DNA from: an uncultured Christensenella sp.
Lineage (GTDB): Bacteria; Bacillota; Clostridia; Christensenellales; CAG-917
Length of the DNA stretch: 64,000 nt
Direction of reading: 5' to 3'
Assembly: GCA_910584155.1 (NCBI GenBank)
Contig: CAJTYG010000007.1
Span: 65,848 to 129,847, forward strand
Below the pieces are notes generated by a model. It saw only the letters and a list, made by a program, of their open reading frames with translations, had not been told where the DNA came from and made no database searches. Below, in pieces: positions 25,912 to 35,948 of this stretch. The position numbers were made by a program, and so were the translations under genes. Within the stretch, counting starts at the first letter, position 1. Each line of letters opens with the position of its first letter.

Positions 25912-25923
25912 GTCCACATAATT

Positions 25924-26082
25924 GGATAGAGGTCGTGGTTTTCATGACAAGTTTACGTGGTCAGACAACACGTTTACGGTAAAGGGAAAATCACCGAAGT
26001 GCAATCGATCTGTCTGAGGAAAGATTGTGCTGGGACGGCATAAAATATGTGTCGGACTGTCACGCAAGTGGAGAGCTATCGA
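25924..26082 (+). promoter_or_regulatory. Lysine riboswitch (L-box) aptamer
   Basis: The hallmark L-box blocks appear in the correct order: GATAGAGGTCG..., GTAAAGGGAAAATCACCGAAG, TGCTGGG, GGACTGTCACGCAAGTGGAGAGCTATC. Confidence 0.85.
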
Positions 26083-26095
26083 TATTGTTGTTTTT

Positions 26096-32453: not shown

Positions 32454-34367
32454 TTAGTATTCCGTTGACAAATCTTTATAATTAATTAGTTCTTCCGGTA
32501 TTTGTGGGGGATTTGTATTAATTTCAATTATTGTTTCATATTTAACATCAAAAAATTCGTCAGTTATTATTGTTTTATATTTATTTTCTGACAGCTTGAT
32601 AAAATTACTAATAATACTATTTCCTATTTTACTAATTAATAGATTTAGATTTTCATCAAAGTAGGAAGTACTCAACTTTTGAATTGATAATTGATTAAAA
32701 TTATCATAATATGATATATAATAACAACAGTCATTATCAATAATTAGAAACGCTTGACTGTTACCTATATCATTAATGTCTTGAGCATATATTAATTCAT
32801 GAGATATAAAATAGCTCATATTATCAGCAATAGTTATTGAAAATGCATTGATTTTATTGGTGTATAAAGCTACAAAAATATCATTTAAATTTGAAAAATC
32901 ATTTGGATTGCTGTTATAATTTGAGTAAATGACTAAAAGAAATGTCAAATCATCAACCAGTTGCTCTTTCTTAATACTATTCCATTGTTCCTCTATTCCA
33001 TCATAAGCTATTTTTATTGTGCTATTCAAATAAGCGAATGCATAAAAGCCAATGCTAGTAACGCTGCTTGGAATAGAAATGCTTGTAAGCTCAGTACATC
33101 CGGAAAATGCACCTTCGCCAATGGTTGTTACACTGTCGGGTATGATTATGCTCGTAAAACTGCTACAATTTTTGAACGCATAATTACTAATAATTGTAAC
33201 GCCGTTTGGTATGGTTATATTTGTAAGCTCAGTACATCCGGAAAATGCACCTTCGCCAATGGTTGTTACACTGTCGGGTATGATTATGCTCGTAAAACTG
33301 CTACAATTTTTGAACGCATAATTACTAATAATTGTAACGCCGTTTGGTATGGTTATATTTGTAAGCTCAGTACATCCGGAAAATGCACCTTCGCCAATGG
33401 TTGTTACACTGTCGGGTATGACTATGCTTGTAAGACTGCTACAATTTTTGAACGCATCATTGTATATTTGAGTTGTGCCTTCTTTTAGTTCAAGTGAAGT
33501 GTTATCAGCCATATTACCTTTATATGTATAAGCAATTTTACCCGCATAAATAACACCATTAGGCTGATTGCTATACCAAGAATCGCCATTAAATGCATTG
33601 TATCCGACGCTTATTACGCTGTCGGGAATAGTTACACTTGTTATATCACAATTATAAAAAGTGTAGCTATGTATTGTTTTAATACCGTCGGCAATAATAA
33701 TGTCACCACTTATTTTAGAATTATTCAAATATAAGGTAGAATTTGTTCTCAAAGGGTTTGAATGCATATCAATAGAAAGCCAAGCATTTAAATCCGATAT
33801 ATATACATTTGTTATATTTGAGCATTGAGTAAATGCGTCTTCATTGATTTCTGTAATTCCTAATCCAAGAGTTAAATTGTTGAGATTTTTACATCCATAA
33901 AAAGCGTTTTTATCTATTGTTGTGACAGTATCGGGAATTTTAACGCTTTGAATACTAGTACATGCTCTTAATGCACCGTCTCCTATTTTTGTTATTCCGT
34001 CGGGAATTACAAGATTAGCAGGTAATTTATCTTTATTGCCATCTATGCCTTTTAATGTTCCATCGCTTGATATATCCCATTCAATATCCCAATCGGCATA
34101 ATAAGTAATATTTTCCCAAACACGATATTTTGTGTTGAAGCTACTGCCTTCTCCGTCTTTTTCTGTATACCAACCACAGAAATTACTACCGAATTTTGTT
34201 GGGTTAGAAACAGTAGGCATTATATAACCAATTTTTACTTTTTTTACAGTAGGTTTATCTCCATTGCACGGGTCAAAGGTGATTTTTACTTTGGTAGCAA
34301 CTGCTGAGTAATTGACAAGATTTACACGCTTGTAGGTGGCTTGCATTCCAAGCTCATCCTCAAGCAC
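32454..34367 (-). CDS. BspA-type leucine-rich-repeat protein with a Listeria/Bacteroides-repeat-like N-terminus and no signal peptide
   Basis: Repeated IPDSVTTIGEGAFSGCTELTNITIPNGVTIISNYAFKNCSS units. The N-terminus has a GWYTEKDG...F motif. The start could be the GTG at 34367 or the ATG at 34346 (GAGGA 10 nt upstream). The ORF is in frame with the upstream ORF across a single TAG. Confidence 0.8.
   Translation of the reverse strand: MLEDELGMQATYKRVNLVNYSAVATKVKITFDPCNGDKPTVKKVKIGYIMPTVSNPTKFGSNFCGWYTEKDGEGSSFNTKYRVWENITYYADWDIEWDISSDGTLKGIDGNKDKLPANLVIPDGITKIGDGALRACTSIQSVKIPDTVTTIDKNAFYGCKNLNNLTLGLGITEINEDAFTQCSNITNVYISDLNAWLSIDMHSNPLRTNSTLYLNNSKISGDIIIADGIKTIHSYTFYNCDITSVTIPDSVISVGYNAFNGDSWYSNQPNGVIYAGKIAYTYKGNMADNTSLELKEGTTQIYNDAFKNCSSLTSIVIPDSVTTIGEGAFSGCTELTNITIPNGVTIISNYAFKNCSSFTSIIIPDSVTTIGEGAFSGCTELTNITIPNGVTIISNYAFKNCSSFTSIIIPDSVTTIGEGAFSGCTELTSISIPSSVTSIGFYAFAYLNSTIKIAYDGIEEQWNSIKKEQLVDDLTFLLVIYSNYNSNPNDFSNLNDIFVALYTNKINAFSITIADNMSYFISHELIYAQDINDIGNSQAFLIIDNDCCYYISYYDNFNQLSIQKLSTSYFDENLNLLISKIGNSIISNFIKLSENKYKTIITDEFFDVKYETIIEINTNPPQIPEELINYKDLSTEY
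33083..33462 (-). repeat. 138-bp tandem repeat, about 2.75 copies, inside the LRR gene
   Basis: Units at 33083-33220 and 33221-33358 are identical by eye. The third copy, starting at 33359, diverges after about 100 nt. Confidence 0.9.
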
Positions 34368-34382: not shown

Positions 34383-35018
34383 CTAGTTTTTTAATATTTT
34401 GACATCTTCGGTTATTTTGCCGAAGTCCTCATCTTTATACGTCAGCGACAGCTTACTGCCGGACTTTTTCCAACTTCCTTTGTCAACGCCTTCCTGTCCT
34501 GTATACATCGAGGTATAGTGATATTCATATTTAGTTGCGGTGAAGCTGTAAAACTCGTTGGGGTTGTTTACGTTGACGTAAATTCCTCGTATACCAACGA
34601 GGGTTGACATAAGTGTGATAAAAATTATCACAACAAGCACGATGGGACAGACAATAAACCAATGCTTTTTAAACCAAGCCCAAGCAGGCGAGGCTGATAC
34701 TTTGGATATTGCCGCCGACATCTTTTCTTTTGCAGGCGATTTCGCTTTTGGGGCAGGGTTTTGTTGTGCCTGCTGTTTTTCCGCTTCCAAAGCGGCAAGA
34801 CGTGCTTTTAAAGCTTCAAGCTCGCTGTTTACGTCCTGCGTTGCTTCGGCTTGGTTCGCCGTTGTGGGCTGCAATGTTGCGTCTTCTGTCTGTTGTTGCT
34901 CTGCGGGCTGAGCAGTTTCTTGCTTTTTTGTCGCATAGTATTTATTGCAATTCGGGCAATAAAATTTTTTGTCATCGCAGCGTTCAAGCTCGGTGCCGCA
35001 GTTAGGGCATTTTGCCAT
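34383..35018 (-). CDS. Membrane-anchored protein: N-terminal zinc ribbon, Q/A/E-rich linker, one TM helix, small C-terminal domain
   Basis: CPNCGTE...CPNCNK followed by WFIVCPIVLVVIIFITLMSTLVGI. AGGAGGA RBS. Ends at a TAG that is in frame with the LRR ORF. Confidence 0.75.
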   Translation of the reverse strand: MAKCPNCGTELERCDDKKFYCPNCNKYYATKKQETAQPAEQQQTEDATLQPTTANQAEATQDVNSELEALKARLAALEAEKQQAQQNPAPKAKSPAKEKMSAAISKVSASPAWAWFKKHWFIVCPIVLVVIIFITLMSTLVGIRGIYVNVNNPNEFYSFTATKYEYHYTSMYTGQEGVDKGSWKKSGSKLSLTYKDEDFGKITEDVKILKN

Positions 35019-35059: not shown

Positions 35060-35240
35060 CAAAAAAGTGGCGACCTGTCGGATCGCCACTGTCTCTTTTG
35101 TATAACAAGTGCGCTCCGCCAGATTCACCACAAATCCCGAAATGCGTCACTTTACCAGCACCCATTTGTTATGCGAAAAACGCACTTGTTACCTATTTAG
35201 GAAACAAATGGATACTGCTTATATTCGGAATTTGTGGTGC
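35060..35240 (-). ncRNA. Candidate structured RNA of about 180 nt (sRNA or cis-regulatory leader), class unknown
   Basis: It has its own promoter and its own intrinsic terminator (AGTGGCGA-9 nt-TCGCCACT + U6). Long-range pairings are 35126-35141/35224-35239 (16 bp), 35162-35170/35203-35211 (9 bp) and 35104-35113/35181-35190 (10 bp). Confidence 0.55.
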
Positions 35241-35244
35241 AAAT

Positions 35245-35273
35245 ATTTTAACATATTAGCGGGGCAGTGTCAA
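35245..35273 (-). promoter_or_regulatory. Sigma-A-type promoter driving the structured RNA
   Basis: Minus strand TTGACA-17 nt-TAAAAT. The predicted start site falls at the 5' strand of the 16-bp closing helix. Confidence 0.65.
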
Positions 35274-35414
35274 ATTTTTGATATCTAATATCTATCCATC
35301 CGCAAAATAATAAAAGTTTTGACAAACTTATTGTTATCGTTATTGACAAATTGATGATTACATATTTATAATATATCTATATAATAAGTATCCCTAAAGG
35401 GAGAGGAGATTTTT

Positions 35415-35948
35415 ATGGGTTGCATTTGGCATGACGTTGACCCTGCTCGCATCACTACGACTGATTTTTTGGCGTGTATCGAGATTTCAAAGGGCAGTAA
35501 AAACAAATATGAGCTTGACAAGGAAACGGGCACTCTCATCTTAGACAGAGTTTTGTACACATCTACGCACTATCCTGCAAACTACGGTTTTATTCCGCTT
35601 ACTTACTCTGAGGACAACGACCCGCTTGACGTGTTGGTGCTTTGCTCGGAGCCTATCGTACCTCTTACGCTTGTCAGGTGCTATCCAATCGGCGTGATGA
35701 TGATGCAGGACAGCAATGAGATGGACTATAAAATCATTGCAATTCCGTTTAAAGATCCTACGTGGAATGTTTATAAGGAAATCGAAGAACTGCCAAGCCA
35801 TATCATGGAAGAGATGTCGCACTTTTTCAGAGTATACAAGCAGCTTGAGGGCAAGCAGACGACGGTGTTCCAAGTCAAGGGACGTGAGCATGCCGAGCTT
35901 ATCATCAAGGAAAACATACAGGAATACAACAAAAAGTTTAAAAAATAA
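35415..35948 (+). CDS. ppa: Inorganic pyrophosphatase, family I
   Basis: IEISKGSKNKYELDKETG, YPANYGFIP and DGDPLDVLVL-like (DNDPLDVLVL) motifs. Confidence 0.92.
   Translation: MGCIWHDVDPARITTTDFLACIEISKGSKNKYELDKETGTLILDRVLYTSTHYPANYGFIPLTYSEDNDPLDVLVLCSEPIVPLTLVRCYPIGVMMMQDSNEMDYKIIAIPFKDPTWNVYKEIEELPSHIMEEMSHFFRVYKQLEGKQTTVFQVKGREHAELIIKENIQEYNKKFKK

Follow-up and report, generated by a model that had tools for sequence, protein, structure and literature searches.

A structured leader RNA upstream of zinc-ribbon and leucine-rich-repeat reading frames

We analyzed a leader RNA on the minus strand of a 64,000-nt stretch of DNA from an uncultured Christensenella sp. (hereafter the window). 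An earlier note on this DNA had described a TTGACA-17-TAAAAT promoter, a 16-bp helix with one G-U pair enclosing a three-way junction made of a 9-bp helix and two small hairpins, a perfect 10-bp complementarity crossing the outer helix, and a strong terminator followed by U6; all of these features were found where it had placed them. The sigma-70 promoter (TTGACA at 35273-35268, a 17-nt spacer and TAAAAT at 35250-35245) matches the consensus at 11 of 12 positions and carries a TG extension, and a gap of 5 nt separates the end of its -10 box from the first base of helix P1, the predicted start of the transcript. P1 is formed by a 5' strand (CACCACAAAUUCCGAA, 35239-35224) and a 3' strand (UUCGGGAUUUGUGGUG, 35141-35126) that pair over 16 bp, one of them G-U. 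The helix above it, P2, has a core of 9 bp (35211-35203 with 35170-35162) and grows to about 15 bp in the window copy's minimum-energy fold (5' strand 35217-35203, 3' strand 35170-35156). The internal loop between P1 and P2 holds an AAUA motif (35225-35222) whose columns are 86-95% conserved among 95 distinct sequences and which is possibly a hinge or a contact site.

At its tip, P2 opens into the three-way junction, which in the predicted fold contains hairpins P2a (CCUAAAUAGG, 35201-35192) and P2b (GUGCG-UUUUU-CGCAU, 35185-35171). P2a was predicted in 53 of the 88 minimum-energy folds of family copies. The junction also harbors the 5' strand of a long-range pairing (GUAACAAGUGCGUUUU, 35192-35177) that we refer to as the pseudoknot. 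This strand overlaps the 3' side of P2a, the junction sequence AACAA and the 5' side of P2b, and the pseudoknot and the two hairpins are therefore mutually exclusive. Its partner lies in what we call the switching strand (35125-35102), composed of a linker (AAUCUGGCGGAG, 35125-35114) and the pseudoknot 3' strand (CGCACUUGUUAU). The perfect complementarity of 10 bp (35190-35181 with 35113-35104) reaches 16 bp when G-U pairs are allowed (35192-35177 with 35117-35102). The intrinsic terminator follows at 35090-35060, with a 10-bp stem and a 5-nt loop (35090-35066) and then U6; its 5' arm and loop (CAGUGGCGAUCCGACAGGUC, 35091-35072) are the partner of a predicted antiterminator described below. 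Folding of the 191-nt RNA gave a minimum free energy of -74 kcal/mol, compared to -44 +/- 3.9 kcal/mol for 200 dinucleotide shuffles (z = -7.8), and 0 of the 200 shuffles folded equally well.

The first gene downstream, with its Shine-Dalgarno sequence AAGGAGG at 35032-35026, occupies 35032-34383 on the minus strand; its start codon at 35018 was confirmed as the next one after the terminator, and its product, 211 aa long, combines a zinc ribbon with a transmembrane segment. The assertion that no convincing promoter intervenes between terminator and start codon was nearly right: a weak promoter-like site (CCGACA-16-TATAGT, 9 of 12 matches, 35081-35054, minus strand) is present there and overlaps the terminator. 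The second reading frame (34367-32454, minus strand) encodes a BspA-type LRR_5/Flg_new surface protein (LRR_5 E = 2.5e-98). The two frames, 34383-35018 and 32454-34367, are in-frame with each other and are parted by a single TAG at 34383-34385 (...DVKILKN*GNKTLVLEDELGMQ...). A paralogue on contig C4 of the same genome is one fused protein of 621 aa that combines zinc ribbon, transmembrane segment, Flg_new and LRR_5, which suggests that in the window a nonsense codon interrupts the gene or marks a site of read-through.

Next to the leader promoter, and facing away from it, is a perfect consensus promoter (TTGACA-18-TATAAT, 12 of 12 matches, 35343-35372, plus strand), which serves a divergent inorganic pyrophosphatase gene at 35415-35948. 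Elsewhere in the window, a lysine riboswitch was recognized at 25919-26086 on the plus strand (72.2 bits against Rfam RF00168).

The leader belongs to an uncatalogued RNA family

When the window site was scanned against all families of Rfam 15 at gathering thresholds, zero matches were returned, and the same was true of 10 diverse family members. At E-values up to 10, the window produced sub-threshold matches alone, mostly over the terminator and far below gathering scores. The earlier statement that the RNA matches no known riboswitch class thus holds. Searches of the full-text literature (BspA or LRR together with riboswitch, structured RNAs of Christensenellales, and the letters of the motif) gave no description of this leader.

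Using BLAST and a covariance model, we located five copies in the 1.9-Mb genome, on contigs C7 (the window copy), C1 and C4 (three copies). A pattern scan of contigs from one genome per species revealed more copies in metagenome-assembled genomes labelled Christensenella sp., Clostridia and Bacillota. Of 108 genomes from the same GTDB family, 41 carry the RNA, with about 95 copies detected by a covariance model (R1) and about 100 in total; within the genus, the RNA was present in 34 of 51 genomes, with a maximum of eight copies per genome. With a second model built from the R1 hits, the RNA was also detected outside this family, in 4/5 and 2/5 of the genomes sampled from two further families of the order. 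A metagenome scan with a relaxed pattern, which was too loose, yielded 120 chance matches and no true member as judged by nhmmer. These results demonstrate that the leader in the window is one copy of an uncatalogued leader RNA family in small-genome gut Clostridia.

The promoter is a conserved part of the unit. Among the 93 copies with enough upstream sequence, 86 have a sigma-70-like promoter and 72 have a -35 box that reads exactly TTGACA; the spacing of exactly 5 nt between the -10 box and P1 is seen in 76 copies. This conserved spacing indicates that the leader RNA is a primary transcript that starts at the foot of P1. In two related genomes, complete promoter-leader units occur in tandem about 80 nt apart (loci L185, 201-336 and 418-554, and L204, 201-328 and 412-545), each pair before one lipoprotein gene, an arrangement that recalls tandem riboswitches. 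At another locus (L004, contig C4, about 96600-96660), a second consensus promoter (TTGACA-17-TAAAAT) lies between the terminator of the leader copy C4b and the start of an LRR lipoprotein gene, and could bypass the attenuator. In the tandem units and in the copy with a second promoter, the first unit could act on its own.

Leader copies precede lipoprotein and LRR genes

We found that 75 of 88 first downstream reading frames (about 85%) encode either lipoproteins, recognized by a lipobox signal (62), or proteins with an N-terminal zinc ribbon followed by a membrane anchor (13). Forty of the 88 resemble the LRR_5 part of the window protein, a count taken on reading frames many of which were cut off by the fetched length. 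In the window genome, 4 of 5 leaders precede Pfam LRR_5 proteins. The fifth copy (locus L005, C4:184188-184052, minus strand) precedes a PF06580 histidine kinase, a response regulator and a 579-aa lipoprotein, a position that suggests that the two-component system itself is under the leader. This copy has a weak terminator-like hairpin only, and no LRR gene lies downstream of it.

Pairing of the rod and the pseudoknot is conserved

P1 and P2 together form a rod in 88 of 88 folded copies, with a mean of 28.8 bp and a small junction at the tip. In an alignment of 101 sequences, compensatory changes were seen at 9/9 pairs of outer P1, which was 98.2% paired. The pseudoknot (14 pairs) was 97.4% paired in the same 101 sequences and showed changes on both sides at 5 pairs, its covariation coming from few positions and a handful of distant members. 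Sliding the partners by one to three columns reduced its pairing to 27-51%. Within the main family the pseudoknot is nearly invariant, and the changes that do occur keep a wobble pair (A-U to G-U in 41 copies, C-G to U-G in 31); one position is A-U in 77 sequences and G-C in 15. In distant members we observed true compensatory changes, namely C-G to A-U, C-G to U-A and U-A to C-G. This pattern supports pairing in RNA and argues against binding sites for a protein on DNA. The earlier note had left it open whether the crossing match was a pseudoknot or an alternative fold: the match is kept as a pseudoknot by compensatory changes, and the strand adjoining it serves as a predicted antiterminator.

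The same pattern bears on a DNA-level reading, in which the inverted repeat TAACAAGTGCG ... CGCACTTGTTA would consist of recombinase sites and the segment of 61-73 bp between them would flip, giving phase variation of surface proteins as in the invertible switches of gut bacteria. A perfect inverted repeat does adjoin variable surface-protein genes here. However, 0 of 101 copies were flipped, all being in the orientation that keeps P1 paired; the changes in the repeat are one-sided and of the RNA-wobble type (A to G, C to U), which is unexpected for DNA sites; and the promoter lies outside the segment. Known invertible segments are, moreover, much longer. We give this reading almost no credence.

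With a linker as short as 12-17 nt, closing the pseudoknot over the rod of about 29 bp may require the rod to bend at the AAUA loop or to melt in part. Two further observations concern the availability of its 5' strand. In many copies (for example loci L170 and L148), the inner part of the P2 5' strand has a sequence like that of the pseudoknot 3' strand (for instance ACUUGUUAU or GCACUU), which gives the pseudoknot 5' strand a further local alternative, an extended hairpin that could lock it. When nascent transcripts were folded, a computation made without a shuffle control, at least 6 of the 11 core bases of this strand paired upstream in 83 of 88 copies.

The switching strand matches the output platform of each copy

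The linker between P1 and the pseudoknot 3' strand, 12-17 nt long, is the most variable part of the leader. Copy by copy, the linker and the first bases of the pseudoknot 3' strand are complementary to the loop and 5' arm of the terminator in the same copy: AUCUGGCGGAGCGC with GCGAUCCGACAGGU in the window, and GACAAGAGUGCAC with GUGCGCCCUUGUC and CUGAAAGAGUGC with GCGCUCUUUCGG in two other family copies. Switching strands paired with their own platforms had a mean energy of -16.4 kcal/mol, compared to -12.4 kcal/mol with the platforms of others and -10.1 kcal/mol for shuffled strands; sequences within the genus are akin, and the shuffle statistics of these duplexes therefore overstate independence. 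In an aligned subgroup of 22 sequences, the antiterminator (14 pairs) was 90.7% paired with three compensatory pairs, compared to 23-64% when slid, and the terminator was 99.3% paired.

In the window, the predicted antiterminator (35125-35108 with 35091-35072; -17.9 kcal/mol) is part of the minimum-energy fold of a transcript cut at 35072. The pseudoknot duplex was calculated at -22.5 kcal/mol, against -6.5 kcal/mol for the P2a and P2b hairpins that it displaces, and the terminator with its extended stem at -22.2 kcal/mol. In this energy model the helices appear balanced, as would be expected of a switch. The strand 35117-35108 is common to pseudoknot and antiterminator. The window copy accordingly holds the three elements of a three-state attenuator: a terminator, an antiterminator that uses the terminator's 5' arm, and an anti-antiterminator within the sensor.

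A crude classifier assigned 52 of 83 platforms to a terminator type and 18 to a sequester type, in which the Shine-Dalgarno sequence is hidden, and placed 13 in neither. The antiterminator partner overlaps the 5' arm of the terminator in 49 of the 52 terminator-type copies, and the corresponding partner overlaps the anti-Shine-Dalgarno strand in 14 of the 18 sequester-type copies. In at least 18 members without a terminator, the linker (for example GCGGGGAU) mimics the Shine-Dalgarno sequence and is complementary to an upstream strand (AUCCCUGC), which alternatively pairs with the genuine Shine-Dalgarno sequence, located 5-10 nt ahead of the start codon. The distance from the pseudoknot strand to the start codon has a median of 80 nt in the terminator type and 49 nt in the sequester type. 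The combination of one sensor with either a transcriptional or a translational platform is typical of cis-acting, riboswitch-like regulators, and fits poorly with an sRNA that acts purely in trans or with modification of the polymerase.

The earlier note had proposed either a riboswitch-like leader controlling termination or an independent sRNA, and the comparative data, leaving aside the nature of any signal, favor the leader. An independent RNA of about 185 nt, acting in trans through a conserved 11-nt motif that pairs with other transcripts, with its adjacency to genes incidental or part of a dual function, would agree with the strong promoter and strong terminator of its own, with a motif identical in all five copies of this genome, with the tandem units in two genomes and with the second promoter that follows the terminator of one copy. 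We nevertheless consider it unlikely. The RNA is conserved in multiple copies, always on the same strand as the gene and just upstream of it, typically tens of nucleotides before the start codon, and, in place of termination, at least 18 members mask the next gene's Shine-Dalgarno sequence, an exchange of hairpins that would be useless to an sRNA. Furthermore, the linker co-varies with its own platform, which makes sense only in cis, and the genome holds no extra copy of the motif resembling a target or partner: the few additional occurrences of the conserved 11-mer fall within coding or unrelated sequence and are probably chance matches. A trans-acting role is possible, but secondary at most.

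Two other readings do without switching between alternative helices. The leader might be a static structured 5' end, a protective stem or RNase III site that stabilizes or processes the mRNA, followed by a leaky terminator. Its rod of about 29 bp from the first transcribed base and the lack of a known effector would suit such a role; we judge it quite unlikely, since it leaves unexplained a conserved pseudoknot that competes with the junction hairpins, an antiterminator that tracks the terminator of each copy, and the use of both terminator and Shine-Dalgarno-hiding platforms. Alternatively, the leader could modify RNA polymerase or recruit a NusG paralogue, in the style of put RNA, EAR RNA, LoaP or UpxY, and bring about read-through without a competing helix. 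The general setting, a structured leader and then a terminator before surface-structure genes, is indeed that of the UpxY and LoaP systems. We regard this reading as very improbable, because the genome, which is 98.3% complete, gave a single NusG-family match, an ordinary alternative pairing with covariation already explains read-through, and members with Shine-Dalgarno-hiding platforms cannot work through the polymerase.

A proposed three-state switch and its possible signal

We consider it likely that the window RNA is a cis-acting leader of a new family and operates as a three-state switch. In the mechanism that we propose, the rod of P1 and P2 would begin at the first base of the transcript and end in the small three-way junction, which would hold the conserved pseudoknot 5' strand of 11-16 nt, and the switching strand would emerge directly after P1. 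If the switching strand paired back into the junction, the long pseudoknot would form, the terminator or the Shine-Dalgarno-hiding hairpin would be left free, and the gene would be off. If the junction strand were instead locked in the two local hairpins, the switching strand could pair with the terminator's 5' arm and loop or, in the other type of platform, with the anti-Shine-Dalgarno strand, and the gene would be on. The pseudoknot would thus act as an anti-antiterminator, in the order pseudoknot, antiterminator, terminator. We infer that termination is the default outcome, because the partner of the pseudoknot is transcribed before the terminator arm and the unpaired AACAA offers a site at which pairing can start.

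The level of read-through would be set by a factor (a small ligand, a protein or an RNA) acting on the junction or the pseudoknot. Given termination as the default, the genes would be turned on by a factor that keeps the junction closed or binds the switching strand; a factor that stabilizes the pseudoknot would have the opposite polarity. In either case, setting the read-through level would co-regulate the surface lipoprotein and BspA-type leucine-rich-repeat genes. More tentatively, with less than even confidence, we propose that the RNA represents a new class of riboswitch proper or of other factor-sensing RNA, and that in small-genome, Christensenellales-like gut bacteria a single cellular signal acts through it to co-regulate the complete set of surface lipoprotein genes and BspA-type adhesin-like genes.

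Other candidates for the mode of control were considered and set aside. Cyclic di-GMP is an unlikely signal: GGDEF genes were found in 7 of 51 genomes of the genus, compared to 34 of 51 for the RNA, and a genome that is 99% complete lacks GGDEF genes altogether despite carrying eight copies of the RNA. The c-di-GMP-I model of Rfam matched nowhere in the window genome, but the control genomes of that search likewise gave no match, so that this result carries little weight by itself. A T-box leader was rejected on the basis of the empty all-Rfam scan, the full Rfam set including a T-box model, and of downstream genes that encode surface proteins and are not amino-acid-related. Finally, an AUG-initiated frame of 36 codons in the window leader was dismissed as a leader peptide; it lacks a Shine-Dalgarno sequence, its AUG lies in the variable P2 strand, and the frame was judged by eye not to be conserved among the aligned copies.

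BspA-type LRR proteins and lipoproteins are the main candidates for contact with host or neighbors in these poorly studied, mostly uncultured gut Clostridia, and to our knowledge nothing is known of how these surface proteins are regulated. One shared leader before up to eight such genes per genome provides a concrete handle on their regulation, with built-in stop/go logic and interchangeable transcriptional and translational outputs. If the leader does represent a new riboswitch class, it would define an RNA-based cell-surface regulon with both transcriptional and translational read-outs. It is a well-defined orphan riboswitch candidate whose signal would not come from ordinary metabolism, and the identity of this signal would reveal what these bacteria sense before changing their surface. 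In addition, the opposition of a stable pseudoknot to two junction hairpins could serve as a design for engineered regulators.

Comparison with known regulatory RNAs

In gene setting, the leader is similar to the c-di-GMP riboswitches of Clostridia, which also place a terminator-bearing leader before surface or adhesin genes; it differs from them in having no Rfam match, either at its site in the whole-window scan or at 10 loci, and in belonging to a genus in which GGDEF genes are scarce.

In layout, it resembles the riboswitch and T-box platforms of Bacillota, with three exclusive helices, an anti-antiterminator in the sensor and a terminator just before the gene. Unlike those platforms, it shows no sequence or covariance-model similarity to any Rfam 15 family, and its genes encode surface proteins rather than metabolic enzymes. 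Its anti-antiterminator is a pseudoknot of 11-16 bp into a three-way junction and not the closing helix of an aptamer.

The preQ1, SAM-II, fluoride, ZTP and c-di-GMP-II riboswitches likewise have a 3' tail whose pairing with a sensor loop or junction determines what the downstream platform does. The pseudoknots of those RNAs are short (3-8 bp) and need the ligand for stability, whereas that of the leader is predicted to be stable alone and to compete with two local hairpins, and is built on a 29-bp rod with a small junction. As in riboswitch families, the same sensor is joined to a terminator in some members and to a Shine-Dalgarno-hiding hairpin in others.
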